DNA from: Chloroflexota bacterium
GTDB lineage: Bacteria > Chloroflexota > Dehalococcoidia > Lucifugimonadales > UBA2985
DNA: 64,000 nt
Assembly: GCA_027622595.1 (NCBI GenBank)
Contig: JAQBZZ010000004.1
Span: 575-64,574, forward strand
Direction of reading: 5' to 3'
Notes under the pieces: generated by a model
The model's input: the letters and a program-made list of their open reading frames with translations, nothing else
Database searches by the model: none
Told to the model about the DNA's origin: nothing
Program-made: the position numbers and the translations under genes
Shown here: positions 30,210 through 63,584 of the stretch, piece by piece
Layout: the number at the start of each line of letters is the position of its first letter
Numbering within the stretch: position 1 is the stretch's first letter

Positions 30210-31790
30210 CTACCCCTGGTGTATCAAGAAATACTCGAAACTATCGGCAAGGGCCATCCAACTGGCCTCGATGATGTTGCTGGAGGAGCCAACCGTCTGC
30301 CACTGGCTCTTGCCGTCGGTCGACTCGATGAGCACCCTCACCACGGCCCGCGTGTCCTGGCCCTGGTCGACCACCCGCACCTTGTAGTCCAGCAGCTTCA
30401 CAGCGTCCAGAGACGGGTATGACTCCAAAAGGCCCTTCCGCAGAGCGTTGTCCAGGGCGTTCACGGGGCCATTGCCCTCCGCGGCGGTGTGCATCAACTG
30501 AGAGCCAACCCTCACCTTGACAACCGCCTCCGACAGCATGTCCTCGTGGTCGCCGTTGGCAGGAGCGCGACGACGGTTTTCGACCAGCACCATGAAGTCC
30601 ACCATATCAAAGGGAGGACGGTAGCCATCCAGGCTCCTTCTCACCATCAACTCAAAGGAAGCCTCCGCCCCTTCGTACTGAAACCCCTTGCTCTCCTGCA
30701 ACTTCAACCTGTCGAGTAGAACGACCACCTGCTCCCGGCTCACCATGTCCGCCAACCCAAGTTCATTGAGTCGATGCAGAATATTCCCACGCCCCGATAG
30801 CTCGGAAATCACAACGCGCTTGGCGTTTCCAACCGTCTCCGGTGCGATGTGCTGGTAGCTCTCCTCCACCTTTGCCATCGCGGCCACGTGCAGACCTCCC
30901 TTGTGGCTGAAGGAACTGACGCCAACGTAGGGCTGCTGGCCGTTTGGAGGTATGTTGACTATCTCGCTGACGTAGTGGGATGCCTCCGTGAGACCGGCAA
31001 GCTGCTCGTCGGTCACGCAGGAAATGCCCATCTTCACCTTCAGATTGGCTATAATGGAGAGAAGGTTGGCATTGCCGCACCGCTCTCCATATCCATTGAT
31101 TGTGCCCTGCACCTGGGTGGCTCCAACCGTCACAGCGGCCAGGGTATTGGCAACGGCCATATCCGCATCACTGTGACAGTGGATGCCCAGAGGGGTCGTC
31201 ACTTCACGACGCACCAGAGAGACTATGTCGGTTATCTCCTTAGTCAGCATGCCACCGTTGGTATCGCACAGCACAAGGCAGTCCGCGCCGACTTCCGCCG
31301 CCACTTTAATGGTCTGAAGGGCGTACTCCGGATTGGCCTTGTAGCCATCGAAGAAGTGCTCGGCATCGTAGAAGACGGTGCGTCCCTGTTTCTTCATGTA
31401 AGAGACGGAGTCGGCAATCATCGCCAGGTTCTCCTCCAGCGTGGTCTCCAACACCCTGAGAACGTGGAGGTCTGAACTCTTTCCAACCAGGGTCACAGCG
31501 GGAGTCTCCGCCGCCAGCAGCGCCTTGATATTGCCGTCGTCCTCCACGCGTATTCCCGCCCGGCGAGTGCTGCCGAACGCGGAGATGCGAGCGTTCGAGA
31601 GAGGAATCGACTTGATTCTTTGGAAATACTCAACGTCCTTTGGGTTGGAGCCGGGCCATCCACCCTCGATGTAGTGGACCCCCAGTTCGTCCAGCTTGAG
31701 GGTAATCTTGATCTTGTCTTCCGCGGAAAGAGAGATACCCTCCTGCTGCGCTCCATCTCTCAGTGTGGTGTCATACAACTGTATTTCCAT
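30210..31790 (-). CDS. cimA: citramalate synthase (CimA, LeuA-like with a LeuA_dimer C-terminus)
   Basis: MEIQLYDTTLRDGAQQEGISLS...YIEGGWPGSNPKD matches the CimA-type N-terminus. The start is the ATG at 31790. The preceding Ile T-box fits a role in isoleucine biosynthesis. Confidence 0.8.
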   Translation of the reverse strand: MEIQLYDTTLRDGAQQEGISLSAEDKIKITLKLDELGVHYIEGGWPGSNPKDVEYFQRIKSIPLSNARISAFGSTRRAGIRVEDDGNIKALLAAETPAVTLVGKSSDLHVLRVLETTLEENLAMIADSVSYMKKQGRTVFYDAEHFFDGYKANPEYALQTIKVAAEVGADCLVLCDTNGGMLTKEITDIVSLVRREVTTPLGIHCHSDADMAVANTLAAVTVGATQVQGTINGYGERCGNANLLSIIANLKVKMGISCVTDEQLAGLTEASHYVSEIVNIPPNGQQPYVGVSSFSHKGGLHVAAMAKVEESYQHIAPETVGNAKRVVISELSGRGNILHRLNELGLADMVSREQVVVLLDRLKLQESKGFQYEGAEASFELMVRRSLDGYRPPFDMVDFMVLVENRRRAPANGDHEDMLSEAVVKVRVGSQLMHTAAEGNGPVNALDNALRKGLLESYPSLDAVKLLDYKVRVVDQGQDTRAVVRVLIESTDGKSQWQTVGSSSNIIEASWMALADSFEYFLIHQG

Positions 31791-32100
31791 GATTCCCCCT
31801 ACAAAATAGAAAAATCCCGTCCCCAAGGGACGGGATCATTTGAAAGAATCCCGCGGTACCACCCTTTTTCCCCGGCTTTCAATTACAACTTACACCGGGG
31901 CGCTCATTCAGGGCACCATCATGCCCTCGTCACTGGTAACGGTGTGCGACTCCGGCCCGGTCTACTAACCCAAAGCCCTTTGTGGTTTTCGGCGGGCAGC
32001 TCAGGAGTGATCTTCCAGGGGGCCTTTCGCGTCTGCTCCCACCATGCCAGACTCGCTTGGCGAGGGCGTCCCCCGTACTCGTCTCCGTCTTTGCTTTTGT
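31791..32100 (-). promoter_or_regulatory. T-box riboswitch leader, apparent specifier AUC (Ile)
   Basis: Read on the minus strand, it has the AGUA box in ACGAGUAC and the distal Stem I motif AGCGAGUCUGGCAUGGUGGGAGC. The specifier loop UGGAAG-AUC-A places AUC at 32011-32009. The F-box CCGUUA lies at 31942-31937 and the T-box AGGGUGGUACCGCGGG at 31852-31867. The UGGU bulge matches a tRNA with discriminator A. Confidence 0.85.
31810..31836 (-). terminator. T-box terminator hairpin plus U-tract
   Basis: The minus strand reads ATCCCGTCC-CTTG-GGGACGGGAT followed by TTTTTCTATTTT. Its 5' arm can pair alternatively with the T-box antiterminator. Confidence 0.75.
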
Positions 32101-57908: not shown

Positions 57909-58766
57909 TTATGTGACGGCGCTGAAGATGATGACGCCTCCCAGGACCGCGACTATGCCCACCATCTGTAGTTGAGTCAATCGCTCCTTGAAAAGCACGA
58001 CGGCCAGTGCCATGGTCACTGCAGGATAGGCAGTCGCAATGGGAATTACGAGTGATACAGGGTTCCGCTCTATTCCAAGGTTGAAGGCTACGAAACCAAG
58101 GGAGTCCAATATCCCAGCGCCTATCACCAGAAGCCCAGCTCCACTCCTAAAGCGAAACCACGCTACTCTCCTGGCCGTTAGATAAATGCTCAGAAAGACT
58201 GTGGAAAAGATTCGGACGGAGGCCACCGCCAGGAATGGGCCGACGTCATCCACCAATGGCTTCCAAAGGGTAAAGGCAACCCCCATGACCATCATCGCCG
58301 TGACGCCGTACCAGACCCCGCTGATGGAGGCGCCGCTTCTACCTCTGGTTGATGCTAGGACTATCCCCATCAAAATCACGCCTATCAGCAGCCACTTGAC
58401 CAGCCCCACCACCTCATCGAAAAAGATGGCTGTCAGAACGGTGGTGACAACCAGGTAGCACGCCGACAGGGGACTGACTATGGACACCATGCCTCGCTCC
58501 AGTCCCCTGTAGAAAACGGAGTATCCCACGGCGAGAAGCAAACCAGTCAAGACAGCAAGGATCACGAAATCCACACTCACCAGGGCACTCCAGGCGGAGT
58601 CGCTGAGCAGTGCTGCCAGCAGGGGCGGAGCTATACCCAGACCCTGAATCACCAGGGTCACAGATGCGCTTCCCATGCGAACGGACGCATACTTTGCGAG
58701 CATGTCGGCCACACCCCAGGCAAACATGCTCGCAAAACCCCAGAGTGCAGGGTCTGCCTGCGACAT
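57909..58766 (-). CDS. EamA/DMT-family transporter
   Basis: Ten hydrophobic segments form two EamA-like halves. Confidence 0.8.
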   Translation of the reverse strand: MSQADPALWGFASMFAWGVADMLAKYASVRMGSASVTLVIQGLGIAPPLLAALLSDSAWSALVSVDFVILAVLTGLLLAVGYSVFYRGLERGMVSIVSPLSACYLVVTTVLTAIFFDEVVGLVKWLLIGVILMGIVLASTRGRSGASISGVWYGVTAMMVMGVAFTLWKPLVDDVGPFLAVASVRIFSTVFLSIYLTARRVAWFRFRSGAGLLVIGAGILDSLGFVAFNLGIERNPVSLVIPIATAYPAVTMALAVVLFKERLTQLQMVGIVAVLGGVIIFSAVT

Positions 58767-58867
58767 AGATGCTCCCTGTTTTCTATTTTTCTACAACATG
58801 GTAAGAGGCCTCTCGTTGAACAGGGAGGCCTCTTACCGTACTAACGGAGTATAACTTAAGGGTTGGT

Positions 58868-59944
58868 CTAGCCAGTGCTGGATTGGGTTTTCGTCATCTC
58901 TTTCCTGACACTGCGGATAGCGGCGTAATCCTCACGCCGCCAGTTGTAGGGCAGTTCAACCACCGTCCCGGGAGTAGTCACGTTCACCAGGGCCTCCAAT
59001 GAGTCCTCAATGATAACCCGCTGCTGGTCGGCATTGCCCGGCTCTCCCAACGGACGGCCGAACGGAAAGCGAACGTGAACCACCCGCGGAGGCCGTATGC
59101 GCTCCTCGGTCTCCTTGAACATCATCACGATAACCGTTGGAATTCCCACCGCTTCTATCGCCCTTGCTACCAGTCCGCCGGACCGGTTGCAGTGAGGTCA
59201 GGTTGCTGTGATGAAGGCGGCGTCGACACCAGCCTGCTTCAGACGCCGCGCCACCTCCGGCGCAGTCTCTTCCATTAGAGCGTTGGTGTTGGCACTTATC
59301 AGCCCCATGAAGCTATACGCCGTTGGTGCCAGTTCACCTATCTTCCCCTCGGCCTCCATCTCCAGGAGACGCTGCAAGGGGAACACGCAGTTCATGTCGG
59401 CCTCCGGCCCGGAGATATCGTACCCGCGGTGCTTTACCCGAAGCTGGTCAACTGGATGTAAGACGTCAGCGATTTTGGACACTTTTTGAGGCCTAATAAA
59501 CCCGAGAGATTTTGGGGTGGTTAGACCTCCGAGAGTCCGCAGCGTGAGTGCTACCTGGGCTTCCATATTTAGTGCTGGATGGCAGCACGTGAACATCAGG
59601 CGAAGACGATCGTCCTCGAGAGTTGAATCTGATTCATCTTTCATGTCAAACGCTTCTTGAACCAATCGCTCCGGCTCAGCTAAAGCTTCATATTTTTCAG
59701 CCCGTCGGTGCTCGCGGCGGACTCCATCAATGGCCCTATGTTTTGCAGCAGTGACAAGCCATGCTGCCGGGTTGTTCGGGATACCGTCGCGTCGCCATGC
59801 ATGCAAGGCAACCGTAAACGCATCCTGGACAGCTTCTTCAGCCAAATCGAAATCGTTGAGCACACGAATCATTGTCGCAACGATACGACCGTATTCTTCA
59901 CGAAAGACGAGTTCGGCTATTTCCTCCACAGTGGGCATAAGCAA
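58868..59944 (-). CDS. chimeric ORF: ECF sigma factor N-terminus fused to a GrdB/PrdB-family C-terminal region, read through an in-frame TGA (candidate selenocysteine)
   Basis: Residues 1-144 are sigma region 2-like (DAFTVALHAW...DDRLRLMFTCCHPAL...LGGLTTP). From about residue 150 the sequence is GrdB-like (DMNCVFPLQRLLEMEAEGKIG...YSFMG...VDAAFITAT-TGA-PHCNRSGGLVARAIEAVGIPTVIV...VRFPFGRPLG). The frame stays open across the TGA at 59200-59198, giving 358 codons in total. The ORF track splits this into 59198-59944 and 58868-59149. Confidence 0.45.
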
Positions 59945-59995
59945 GTCAACTCTCCCAGCCCGATGTTCTACTGGGTCGAGGGTCTCTAGTCTATC

Positions 59996-60355
59996 CTACT
60001 GGTTCGGGATCTCCCTAACGGGTCGTACCTCTACGGATCCACCAGTGGATACGTGGGGCATCTTGGCAGCCCATTCGATGGCTTCATCAAGATCATTGGC
60101 ATCCATAATAAAGTATCCGCCGAGCTGCTCCTTTGTCTCCGCGAACGGACCATCCGTCATGAGTGTCCTGTCGTGTTCGAGCCGAATCGTAGTGGCGGAC
60201 GGAGTTAGCTGCAGGGCTTCGCCTGCCAGCATCTTACCGGACTTCTGAAAAGCGTCCGTGTATTTCATCCAAGTATCTATATGTGCTGCCATTTCCTCCT
60301 GGGACATGCCTTCCCTGGCCTTCTCGTTGTCGTAGATCAGCAACATGTACCGCAT
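59996..60355 (-). CDS. YciI-family (DGPF domain) protein
   Basis: MRYMLLIY...DGPFAETKEQLGGYFI.D....EA.EWA...P is present. This is the usual upstream partner of COG4941-type ECF sigma factors. Confidence 0.85.
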   Translation of the reverse strand: MRYMLLIYDNEKAREGMSQEEMAAHIDTWMKYTDAFQKSGKMLAGEALQLTPSATTIRLEHDRTLMTDGPFAETKEQLGGYFIMDANDLDEAIEWAAKMPHVSTGGSVEVRPVREIPNQ

Positions 60356-60599
60356 TGTGCCCTCCAGTATTGGTTTTTCGAAGCCATTAAAACGGCCTCA
60401 ATGATACGACGAACAGCTTACAGGAATTTCGACCTTCAAGGGAATGATTGCCAGAGATTGCCCATGGGGAACGGGCTATGGATACTTGGCCCCACTAGGG
60501 TTGCAGTTATCAACCGTCCTTCCCCGCAGAAAAGACAACCGACCATTACAACAGTCGCTAAACGTGGGTGCAGGGTGTACCCTGCCCTGCCCTGCCCTG

Positions 60600-61712
60600 C
60601 TATTCGAAGACGCGAAGAATCTCGTACTTGGTGGTACGCTGCGCGGGCGTAAAGCCAGCGTCCCTAATCATGGACTGAGTTTCCTCCGTGGATGTGCGGT
60701 TGTAGAAGCCGGCCTCCTGCATCACATTCTCATCGAACAGCGTCCCGCCGAAGTCGTCACCACCGAAGCTCAGTGCAACCTCGCCCGTCTTCTTGCCCTC
60801 GGAGAACCACGAGGCCTGGATGTGCTGGATGTTGTCCAGGTATATCCTGGATATCGCTATCATACGCAGATATGGATTGGGGCCTGACTCCTCTTTCACA
60901 CGCTTTGCGAGTGGAGTGTTCCCACGTTTGTAGCTCCAGGGAACAAAGGCCGTGAAGCCCTCCATGCCAGCAACCAGAGCTTCGTCCTGCAGGAAGCGTG
61001 TGCGCTCCAAATGCTCGATGACGTCCTCCGGCTGCTCCAAATGGCCGTACATCATAGTGGCGGTGGTGCGATACCCCAGGCGGTGCGCCTCACGATGCAC
61101 CTCTTCCCAGTCCTCCGCCCTGCCCTTGGGCCACAGGCGGCTGAGACGGCGCTTGACCCTGTTGGAAAGCACCTCTGACCCGCCCCCTGGCAGGGTCTCC
61201 TGGCCCGCTTCCTTTAGCCTGCGGAGCACCTCCGACACCGGCATCTCCGAGACCTGCGACATCTTCTGTATCTCCGGCGCCGAGAAGTAGTGGGGCAGCA
61301 CATGGGGGTACAGACGTTTGGTCTCGCGCACAAGCTCCTCGTAGTACTCCATTGGCAGTTTGGAGTTGAGTCCCCCTTGCAAAAGGACCGTTGTGACTCC
61401 CTTGGCTGACGCCTGGCCGACCATCTCCATGACCTGCTCCACTGTGTAGGTGTAGGCGTCCGAGTCCTTCTCAGTGCGATAGAACGCACAGAAGGTGCAG
61501 AAGGCATCGCATATGTTGGTGTAGTTGAGGTTCGTGTCGATCACAAAGGTGACGATTGGGTCCGGGTTATGCCGGTATCGAACCTCCTGCGCCAGGCTCC
61601 CAAGGTCAAGCAACGGGGCCTCTTTGAGCAGATAAAGCCCGTCCTCCGGCGTAATCCTTTCGCCAGCCAGTACCTTCGCCGCCACGTCTTTCATGGATGC
61701 TACCGTGGTCAT
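60600..61712 (-). CDS. mqnC: cyclic dehypoxanthinyl futalosine synthase (radical SAM)
   Basis: NLNYTNICDAFCTFCAFYR (CxxxCxxC cluster motif) is present. The start ATG at 61712 overlaps the mqnA stop (ATGA). Confidence 0.8.
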   Translation of the reverse strand: MTTVASMKDVAAKVLAGERITPEDGLYLLKEAPLLDLGSLAQEVRYRHNPDPIVTFVIDTNLNYTNICDAFCTFCAFYRTEKDSDAYTYTVEQVMEMVGQASAKGVTTVLLQGGLNSKLPMEYYEELVRETKRLYPHVLPHYFSAPEIQKMSQVSEMPVSEVLRRLKEAGQETLPGGGSEVLSNRVKRRLSRLWPKGRAEDWEEVHREAHRLGYRTTATMMYGHLEQPEDVIEHLERTRFLQDEALVAGMEGFTAFVPWSYKRGNTPLAKRVKEESGPNPYLRMIAISRIYLDNIQHIQASWFSEGKKTGEVALSFGGDDFGGTLFDENVMQEAGFYNRTSTEETQSMIRDAGFTPAQRTTKYEILRVFE

Positions 61713-62503
61713 ATGATTGTCTCCTTTGTCTTTGTCGGGGAGAGGGAGCGCCATGCCCCCTCAAATTCCTCTATAGCCTGCCAATCTTCCTCTGACAGAA
61801 CGTATCGGAAGGCCTCCAGATAGTCGATCACCTCAGTGGAGGTCATGCCCATGTGCTCCCGCCTATCGGCAATGACCTTCAGATTGTTTTTCATATTCTC
61901 AGCCAGGTTCTTCCTCAACCCGTCTGCCAGCATCCTCTTCACACCCGAGTCCAGGGTACGGCGGACCATCCACGCAGCGAAGACAAAGGGAAGGCCCTTC
62001 CATTTCAGCCACTCGTCTGCCAGGTCGTAGCGGTACGGAAAGCCCTCCACACTGTCGTGCGTGACAAGGGCCTCATCGCCGATGAGCAAGAAGGCACTCA
62101 GCCCTGGAGATTCCAGGCCGACGTACTTCCTGGGACGCACTTCGTAACGCTGTTCCAAAAGCACCTTCATAAGCTGCACCGCGGTGGCCGATTCCTGGGT
62201 CACGCCCACCACGGCCCCTGAAATCTCGCCCATTGGAACACGCGAATAGAACAAAATACTCCGCACAGGCCCCTTGACGCTGATGCCCATGTCGCCAAGG
62301 CTCTCGTACTTATCTCTCAGGCCGAAGCTCTGCACAAGGGAGAATGGCGCCGCATCCAACTCTTCTGCCTGTGCCAGCGGCCCCATAGAACTGGGAGGCA
62401 TGGGGCAAAGCTCAATGCCATCAAGGGCAAGGCCGTGAAAGAAAGGCTCGCAGTTCAGGTACGGTATCTGCCCGATCCTAACTATCGTAGACATGAATCT
62501 CAT
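61709..62503 (-). CDS. mqnA: chorismate dehydratase (MqnA family)
   Basis: The N-terminus is RIGQIPYLNCEPF, and the length fits the periplasmic-binding-like fold. The start could be 62503 or 62494. Confidence 0.75.
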   Translation of the reverse strand: MRFMSTIVRIGQIPYLNCEPFFHGLALDGIELCPMPPSSMGPLAQAEELDAAPFSLVQSFGLRDKYESLGDMGISVKGPVRSILFYSRVPMGEISGAVVGVTQESATAVQLMKVLLEQRYEVRPRKYVGLESPGLSAFLLIGDEALVTHDSVEGFPYRYDLADEWLKWKGLPFVFAAWMVRRTLDSGVKRMLADGLRKNLAENMKNNLKVIADRREHMGMTSTEVIDYLEAFRYVLSEEDWQAIEEFEGAWRSLSPTKTKETII

Positions 62504-63584
62504 TGTAGAGGGCGTCCCGCTCCACCGGCGTCTTCCCTGCGTCCCCGATAAGTTTCAGCATCCGCGCCCGTGCAAGGCCAACGGGGCTGGCGGCCTTTGC
62601 CGCGTGGGCAATGCGCTCCTCGCCGATGGTTCCGTCAAGGTCGCTTGCCCCGAAGTTGAGGGCAATGGAGGCGGTCTCCTCGCCTATCATCACCCAGTAG
62701 GCCTTGATGTGGGGAAAGTTGTCCAGCATCAGCCGCGACGTGGCAATCGTCCTCAGGTCCTCGGCGGACGACGCCTGGCGGGGGACCAGGTTGGTGTTAC
62801 CCACCTGGTATTCCAGGGGAATAAAGGCCAGGAAACCGGGGGCCTCGTCCTGCAACTCACGCAGGAGGATCATGTGCTGTATCCGTTCCTCCAGCGTCTC
62901 GATGTGGCCGTACAGTAGGGTGGCGTTGGAGCGGATGCCCATGTTGTGGGCCATGCGGTGAATCTCCAGCCATCGCTCGGCGCTGTTCTTGCCGGGAAAC
63001 AGCTCTTTCCTGACCCGGTTCGAAAAGACCTCGGCGCCGCCGCCGGGCATGGACACCATGCCTGCATCCTTCATGCGACCGAAAACTTCCTCTTCAGTCA
63101 TCTTGAACCGCTTGCAGAAGTAGTCGATCTCCGCGGCCGTCCATGCCTTGATACGGATGGTTGGATAGGCCTCGTGAATACCGCGGATGATCCCCTCGTA
63201 CCGCTCAAAGGGCCAATCGGGGTGGTGCCCCCCCACGATGTGCACCTCCTGCATCTCCGGGTCCAGCTTTGCCAGAATCTCATCCATCCCCATCTCGTAG
63301 GCACCGGCATCGCCCTTCTTCTTGGCAAAGTCGCAGAACGTGCATGAGAGCACACAGATATTGGTGGGGTTTATGTGGCGGTTGAAAACAAAGTAGACCT
63401 TGTCGCCCCAGAGCTTGCGTTTGACGTAATCGGCCATCTGACCAAGCGACATCAGGTCCCGTGTCTGAAGGCAGGTGACGCCGTCTTCAGAGCTGAGCCG
63501 TTGCCCCATTTGCACCTTTTCCCAAATTGGCTCCAGAGACTTGTCTCTGAACTGGATGATGGGTAAAACCGCCGTCGTGGTCAT
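62478..63584 (-). CDS. mqnE: aminodeoxyfutalosine synthase (radical SAM)
   Basis: FNRHINPTNICVLSCTFCDFAKK is present, and the C-terminal part is MqnE-like. Confidence 0.8.
   Translation of the reverse strand: MTTTAVLPIIQFRDKSLEPIWEKVQMGQRLSSEDGVTCLQTRDLMSLGQMADYVKRKLWGDKVYFVFNRHINPTNICVLSCTFCDFAKKKGDAGAYEMGMDEILAKLDPEMQEVHIVGGHHPDWPFERYEGIIRGIHEAYPTIRIKAWTAAEIDYFCKRFKMTEEEVFGRMKDAGMVSMPGGGAEVFSNRVRKELFPGKNSAERWLEIHRMAHNMGIRSNATLLYGHIETLEERIQHMILLRELQDEAPGFLAFIPLEYQVGNTNLVPRQASSAEDLRTIATSRLMLDNFPHIKAYWVMIGEETASIALNFGASDLDGTIGEERIAHAAKAASPVGLARARMLKLIGDAGKTPVERDALYNEIHVYDS

Follow-up and report, generated by a model that had tools for sequence, protein, structure and literature searches.

A PrdB-like selenoprotein gene in a Chloroflexota genome, probably disrupted, with its selenocysteine codon and SECIS-like hairpin in place and a sigma-factor fragment at its 5' end

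The systems most similar to the locus reported here are PrdB of D-proline reductase (NCBIfam model TIGR04483), known from Clostridium sticklandii and Clostridioides difficile, and GrdB, GrdF and GrdH of glycine, sarcosine and betaine reductase (TIGR01918 and Pfam PF07355), and the selenenylsulfide chemistry of the UxxC motif is carried over from GrdB and PrdB (review PMC13188914). In the ocean, "proline reductase PrdB" proteins with UxxC (pfam07355) ranked third in abundance among the selenoprotein families of the Sargasso Sea (PMC1088965, 2005) and belonged to the top families of the GOS data, where Sec forms number 235 and Cys forms 110 (PMC2398784). For the Dehalococcoidia, Sec-containing formate dehydrogenases have been described in marine single-cell genomes (PMC5736913), as have genomes with 46-49 selenoproteins (PMC13326102). 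Since both the family and the use of Sec in this lineage are already known, the assignment of a Sec codon is in itself a rediscovery. What is specific to the window—the whole 64-kb stretch of Chloroflexota DNA that was analysed—is a truncated, chimeric remnant of this known selenoprotein family. The explanation that we hold with good confidence is that an in-frame TGA in the window is a genuine Sec codon of a stand-alone PrdB-like gene, and that the local copy of this gene is broken, most likely a recent pseudogene, with Sec codon and SECIS intact. The features on which the argument draws are collected in Table 1.

Table 1. Features of the PrdB-like locus and its surroundings (window coordinates)
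Feature	Coordinates	Strand	Evidence
Perfect 13-nt inverted repeat, GGTAAGAGGCCTC / GAGGCCTCTTACC, terminator-like, between the remnant and the EamA gene	58800..58837	-	Also in L001-L003
3' remnant of PrdB-like selenoprotein gene, codons 131-325 of the intact gene	58868..59455	-	Identity to L001; TIGR04483
SECIS-like hairpin inside the CDS	59165..59191	-	RNAfold; conservation of stem pairs; frozen synonymous sites
In-frame TGA, predicted selenocysteine codon of PrdB-like family, T-U-P-H-C	59198..59200	-	Open frame; homologue column; end of Pfam GRDB match
A+T-rich junction filler, ~59 bp	59456..59514	-	DNA comparison with L001 and L005; sigma protein alignment
ECF sigma-factor 5' fragment, region 2 and first helix of region 4	59515..59944	-	PF04542 match
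YCII-family gene	59996..60355	-	PF03795, E = 4e-25

The minus-strand ORF starts with TTG at 59944 (an ATG lies at 59938) and terminates at TGA 59200-59198, and the annotated downstream ORF begins with GTG at 59149, 16 codons past that TGA. The initial annotation had claimed that the frame is open straight through, and it is: past the TGA it continues for 109 further codons to TAG 58870-58868, and the protein context reads ...VDAAFITAT-U-PHCNRSGGLVARAIEAVGIPT..., with the motif T-U-P-H-C. A scan of the window for other TGA-interrupted ORFs gave off-frame noise alone, this locus excepted; no second prdB-like sequence was found in the 64 kb, and a sigma-70 promoter scan of 58700-60700 returned no match. 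A genome scan with one genome per species yielded 80 related loci, ~70 of them from Dehalococcoidia, Chloroflexota or SAR202. TGA stands at this column in 77 of the 80, within the motif [ST]-U-P-x-C-[NH]-[RQ]-S, and in four further metagenome loci, while the two loci with Cys (C-x-x-S) are both from Acidobacteriota; distant non-Sec homologues have Ser or Gly there. When 5.8 billion proteins were searched, the closest homologues (84-95% identical) proved to be 215-aa ORFs that all end in ...FITAT, and separate ORFs of ~115 aa begin just past that point, which is the pattern expected if gene callers halt at an in-frame TGA that is conserved. In five metagenome loci, translation through the TGA yields proteins 317-335 aa long, in which Sec is residue 210-219. 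The proposal that the TGA occupies the Sec/Cys column in a UxxC context has therefore held, and the adverse outcome named with it, a TGA lying outside that column, does not occur. Judged from these alignments, the relatives make the predicted Sec reading of TGA 59200-59198 very strong. An ordinary stop or nonsense mutation, with the downstream frame open by chance, has in its favour the split made by gene callers and nothing more; with the TGA so constant among the related loci, coding conserved on both sides of it (dN/dS ~0.07 across the TGA) and both the hairpin and its UxxC context retained, we regard it as practically impossible.

The non-Sec relatives (P0013, P0016, P0018, P0020, L089 and L091) show something other than a plain swap of Sec for Cys. 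P0016 has S-P-L-C at the Sec motif, the Acidobacteriota loci L089 and L091 have C-E-L-S, and the distant Symbiobacteriaceae-type proteins have Gly at the Sec column and no Cys nearby. The redox pair thus appears, from these sequences, to have been lost or rearranged several times in the PrdB-like family.

The hairpin downstream of the TGA, initially drawn with 11 pairs around one A-A mismatch and interpreted as a SECIS element, has an upper stem of 8 bp, ACCGGUCC / GGACUGGU (59187-59180 / 59176-59169), closed by a GGC loop (59179-59177) that starts 18 nt past the UGA; below the upper stem come the A-A mismatch and then a weaker lower stem of 3 bp. RNAfold recovers the 8-bp upper stem from the window sequence, and the single-sequence fold is mildly unusual (z = -1.78; 10 of 200 shuffles fold equally well). 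Because this single-sequence evidence is weak, the case rests on the comparison with relatives, for which we used an ungapped alignment of 82 sequences, 80 of them distinct. First, 92.4% of the stem cells pair in the 80 distinct sequences, compared with 20-45% after a shift of the 3' partners by 1-3 columns. Second, the two sides of pair 21-37 change together, in that 47 sequences have U-A and 16 have C-G (a compensatory change), and 17 have a C-A mismatch. Third, since the stem overlaps the conserved peptide CNRSGGLV, synonymous sites were examined, and in the upper stem they are nearly invariant: Arg is CGG in all 44 cases, Ser TCC in all 79, Leu CTG in all 80 and Gly GGA in 72 of 80. Third-position entropy is 0-0.55 bits within the upper stem, the covarying column 21 excepted, against 1.1-1.9 bits elsewhere, whether in the loop, at the A-A mismatch or beyond the stem. 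This restriction of the frozen sites to the stem reflects selection at the RNA level. In bacterial SECIS elements (E. coli fdhF, bSECISearch), the stem starts ~11 nt past the UGA and the apical loop 16-37 nt downstream, with G as its first base. The hairpin at 59191-59165 has this geometry: its stem starts 10 nt past the UGA (7 nt if the weak lower stem is counted), and the first loop base is G in 73 of the 80 sequences. An Rfam search of 59050-59300 gave no match to a SECIS or any other family. Pairing, covariation and synonymous-site freezing support the original interpretation, and the hairpin behaves as a conserved bacterial SECIS element. As for its 11 pairs, the 8-bp upper stem, the GGC loop and the A-A mismatch are present as drawn, and the three lower pairs are less well supported, lower-stem pair 16-42 being formed in only 37 of 80 sequences.

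A different hairpin is favoured by RNAfold in the homologues that encode U-P-V-C with CCG GTG TGC (loci L012, L015, L017, L018, L020, L022 and L025-L034). This 7-bp structure, GACCGGU-GUGCA-ACCGGUC, takes in the GA of the UGA and competes with the SECIS stem, and most of the sequences concerned also have the C-A mismatch at pair 21-37. It may be due to chance or may represent a regulatory alternative fold.

Family assignment was made by profile matching with Cys placed at the TGA position of the read-through product. Residues 161-335 match TIGR04483 (PrdB), the best-scoring model, at positions 63-236 of 238 (E = 8e-43). The score of 146.5 bits is below the equivalog cut-off of 300 bits, and so is that of the intact relative L001 (193.9 bits). 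The more inclusive tests are passed. With TIGR01918, the selenoprotein B subfamily model, the window copy scores 68.7 for a cut-off of 65.45, a margin that is narrow because the protein is truncated (88.1 in the intact relative), and with PF07355 (GRDB) it scores 43.8 bits for a cut-off of 22 (67.9 in L001). In the window copy as in the intact relative, the PF07355 match ends exactly one residue before the TGA. Membership of the GrdB/PrdB selenoprotein B family, which the initial annotation had proposed, is thereby confirmed. A complete selenoprotein B domain is absent from the window copy, in which codons 1-130 are gone and the TIGR04483 match is confined to the range given above.

That the gene is intact, as the first reading implied, is where the evidence turns the other way, because the ORF is chimeric. 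Intact relatives are 317-335 aa long with Sec near residue 216. Homology to the intact L001 gene begins abruptly at 59455, which is codon 131 of 325; from there on identity is 93% at the nucleotide and 95% at the amino-acid level, and just upstream of 59455 a DNA comparison finds no similarity to the prdB-like gene of L001. The 130 missing N-terminal codons hold 28 positions that are invariant among relatives, including the ALVTTGG strand. The first ~145 residues of the ORF are instead 52-65% identical to ECF sigma factors, with Pfam Sigma70_r2 (PF04542, region 2) in residues 12-78, and this homology ends near LGGLTTP. Sigma relatives carry PF08281 (region 4) and PF20239 (DUF6596), both absent here, so that of the two regions expected in an ECF sigma factor only region 2 gives a Pfam match. 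The fragment shares with ECF sigma factors that have a C-terminal DUF6596 its N-terminal sequence and a YCII gene directly upstream, as in L101, and differs from them in that most of region 4 and all of PF20239 are gone and the frame continues into the PrdB-like remnant. Intact YCII-associated sigma genes encode ~410 aa, and when intact lengths are compared with the fragments kept here, ~260 sigma codons and 130 selenoprotein codons are missing. A GrdB/PrdB-family selenoprotein gene that is intact and functional, and that gene callers divide solely at its Sec codon, would account for the open frame through the TGA, the family match, the UxxC motif and the hairpin; faced with the partial TIGR04483 match, a sigma fragment as residues 1-~145 and relatives that are longer by 130 N-terminal codons with their invariant positions, it is very improbable.

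Between the two halves lies the junction filler, which is not homologous to the prdB-like gene. An imperfect direct repeat of 11 nt (10 of 11) on the minus strand, CCAAAATCTCT at 59515-59505 and CCAAAATCGCT at 59478-59468, has its copies 37 nt apart, and they flank most of the filler. The filler may descend from sigma sequence that has decayed and shifted frame, or it may have been left by microhomology-mediated joining. Translated in another frame, the first repeat copy reads PKISRVY followed by a stop, resembling the sigma motif PEIARAF. The simplest rearrangement would be one deletion that removed the 3' two-thirds of the adjacent ECF sigma gene, the intergenic region and the first 130 selenoprotein codons; its product would be a chimeric ORF composed of sigma region 2, filler, PrdB-like residues 131-215, the UGA and 109 codons. 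Insertion of a foreign fragment is an equally possible origin of the junction. The comparison turned up no relative in which an intact YCII-sigma operon occupies this position (the nearest sigma factor is 65% and the nearest YCII protein 53% identical), and deletion and insertion are inseparable because the databases hold no close relative of the YCII-sigma block.

Upstream of the junction, at 60600-63584 on the minus strand, are futalosine-pathway menaquinone genes, in which two CofH/MqnC-type radical-SAM genes flank a VitK2_biosynth (MqnA-like) gene; their order matches that of related Dehalococcoidia. In L005-L008, the order is mqn radical-SAM (368 aa), MqnA-like (266 aa), radical-SAM (370 aa), prdB-like, EamA and polA, and the flanks are the same in the window, where a YCII gene and the sigma stub stand instead of the 5' part of the prdB-like gene. 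This block sits between the radical-SAM gene, which ends at 60600, and prdB-like codon 131. YCII is the usual upstream partner of such sigma factors, and a YCII gene followed by a sigma gene is also found in L101; YCII is absent at this position in L001 and L005-L008. A second assembly, ENA scaffold L009 (53.8 kb), has the identical junction arrangement and differs from the window by 2 mismatches in 14,803 positions (99.986% identity over 14.8 kb), both outside the locus. The two assemblies may derive from the same source reads.

An assembly artefact, in which the true genome has an intact gene and a YCII-sigma piece was wrongly joined to it, must be weighed against this arrangement. In its favour are the metagenomic origin of the assembly, the absence of the junction from JGI metagenome contigs and a G+C content of the block slightly lower than that of its surroundings (50-54% vs 55-61%). 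However, because the 1.1-kb block is syntenically flanked on both sides, an artefact would require two wrong joins within 1.2 kb and the loss of 555 bp; a separate ENA assembly, whose scaffold differs in length and has two mismatches elsewhere, shows the identical structure; and we found no repeat at the junctions long enough to mislead an assembler. We therefore consider an artefact rather improbable, and a real rearrangement the better account of the locus.

Two observations concern the region upstream of the gene. A perfect tandem repeat, CCCTGCCCTG x2, lies at 60580-60599, directly past the radical-SAM stop codon, and marks the exact point where similarity to the syntenic loci L005-L008 ends. 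What precedes the prdB-like gene also varies among close relatives, in that L001-L003 have response regulators and a 1073-aa protein there, L005-L008 have mqn genes and L010 has an HMGL-like gene. On these gene orders, the 5' side of the prdB-like gene appears to be a recurrent rearrangement point in the lineage.

How much function the remnant could retain was considered on a structural model and on its rate of change. The modelled protein, P0016, is a full-length non-Sec homologue (AlphaFold; pLDDT 82.8, pTM 0.81) and is predicted to have an alpha/beta fold, in which the Sec column opens helix 184-199, directly past strand 176-180. The remnant aligns to P0016 from residue ~102 on, so it lacks the N-terminal helices and strands 62-67 (invariant VALVTTGG) and 92-95 of the model. 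A sequence search of the PDB returned no GrdB/PrdB structure, and a Foldseek search of the PDB with the P0016 model gave nothing below E = 0.04, with generic Rossmann-like folds only. When T-C-P-H-C was placed for the Sec motif, there was a weak PDB match (E = 0.006) to 3emx, a thioredoxin with a CPHC active site; the likeness is at the level of the motif only, as the predicted fold is not that of a thioredoxin. The dN/dS of the remnant relative to L001 is 0.071 (21 synonymous and 5 non-synonymous changes), for a family value of 0.076, and its 195 codons contain no frameshift and no extra stop. We estimate that ~36 non-synonymous changes would be expected had the remnant drifted neutrally over the whole branch. 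The low dN/dS and the absence of a disabling change mean that a neutral period, if there was any, was short, and hence that the event was recent. The low number of non-synonymous changes thus fits two readings, a recent disruption or a remnant under continued constraint.

Several points bear on this choice. With a sigma half that has no complete region 4 and a PrdB-like half without its N-terminal helices and first two strands, the locus is most likely a recent pseudogene, and we infer loss of function of both halves. An undecayed remnant with a family-level dN/dS also fits a product still under selection, and since the fusion is in frame and the TTG start is preceded, five nt away, by a Shine-Dalgarno-like GGGAGAG that is plausible as a ribosome-binding site, a chimeric protein could be made. 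The remnant or chimera might then still be used, as a shortened Sec protein made from an internal start or as a fusion of a sigma N terminus to a PrdB C terminus, which would suit the dN/dS, the 195 codons free of disabling mutations, the intact SECIS and the in-frame junction behind its GGGAGAG. We consider continued use unlikely, because the fusion is known from one population and has no homologue among 5.8 billion proteins, the predicted sheet has lost two strands, the invariant ALVTTGG strand being one of them, the sigma part is without most of region 4, and low dN/dS is expected anyway if the event was recent. A functional family of sigma/selenoprotein fusions was rejected as a candidate, as the search of the protein database gave no second example. 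There is likewise little probability that the chimeric ORF is a selected fusion of sigma region 2 to a Sec-containing C terminus, be it a selenium-dependent redox-sensing regulator or a minimal UxxC selenoprotein, or that the intact Dehalococcoidia family has an undescribed reductase chemistry.

In intact genes, the in-CDS hairpin 11-37 nt past the UGA would act as a bacterial SECIS and SelB would deliver Sec-tRNA to the UGA; Sec, placed at the start of a helix in U-P-x-C, would join with the Cys three residues further along in a selenenylsulfide redox pair, as the family suggests. A "Stickland-like" role, the other possibility raised at the outset, is not borne out: the intact relative stays below the PrdB equivalog cut-off, and no PrdA or other partner gene was found conserved beside the prdB-like gene in 77 loci, where no neighbour family is common to more than 15. 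The neighbours in the window are mqn genes, EamA and polA, and prdA or other prd genes, which are co-encoded with PrdB proper, are not among them. Intact relatives also have an extra N-terminal extension of ~70 residues, predicted to be helical in the P0016 model. The score below the cut-off, the extension, the lack of a conserved neighbour and the lack of a PDB relative together define a stand-alone PrdB-like selenoprotein that is not demonstrably a D-proline reductase.

Comparison with the described systems places this family more precisely. PrdB is similar in that its model scores best, the domain is of similar size, Sec sits in UxxC at ~150 of 238 (estimated from matched ranges) and the SECIS is within the CDS; unlike PrdB, the family here has no prdA, prdC or other prd genes nearby, does not reach 300 bits and occurs in Dehalococcoidia rather than in Stickland-fermenting clostridia, with intact relatives that are extended and a window copy that is truncated. 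GrdB, GrdF and GrdH have the Sec column in common with it, and the cut-offs of their models are passed, but the match is to the C-terminal half only of the ~430-aa GrdB, the motif is UxxC and not UxxCxxC, and there are no grdA, grdC, grdD or grdE neighbours. The PrdB UxxC selenoproteins of marine metagenomes (PMC1088965, PMC2398784) are also similar, as they belong to pfam07355, have UxxC, are abundant in the ocean and are mostly Sec forms. These and the Dehalococcoidia subfamily are probably the same broad stand-alone group, an assignment made from papers that list counts, not sequences.

The initial annotation had further predicted that the genome would encode the Sec-incorporation machinery. 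In the 64-kb window, ARAGORN and Rfam found no tRNA-Sec, the sole tRNA being tRNA-Arg; none of its 20 largest ORFs, which belong to housekeeping families, is SelA, SelB or SelD, and none of the 60 related loci scanned has a tRNA-Sec. These negatives cover the window and those 60 loci and have no bearing on the prediction for the whole genome. Besides tRNA-Arg, the only Rfam match was a T-box leader (RF00230, 101.9 bits) at 31823-32100 on the minus strand, directly upstream of a 2-isopropylmalate-synthase-like gene (30210-31826; HMGL-like and LeuA_dimer domains), so that a gene of the leucine pathway is predicted to be under tRNA-sensing control in a Chloroflexota genome.

The locus has consequences for annotation and for the family. 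For the interval 58868-59944, an annotation as two genes would be wrong, and so would one as a single intact selenoprotein; it should be entered as a disrupted selenoprotein B-family gene fused to a sigma fragment. A TGA with a SECIS signature proves descent from a Sec codon, not a working gene, and selenoprotein surveys that count UGA/SECIS matches would score this locus as a selenoprotein. Beyond the window, the intact form is a stand-alone PrdB-like Sec protein present in the genomes of ~70 Dehalococcoidia, Chloroflexota and SAR202 species, and it is abundant in the sea.
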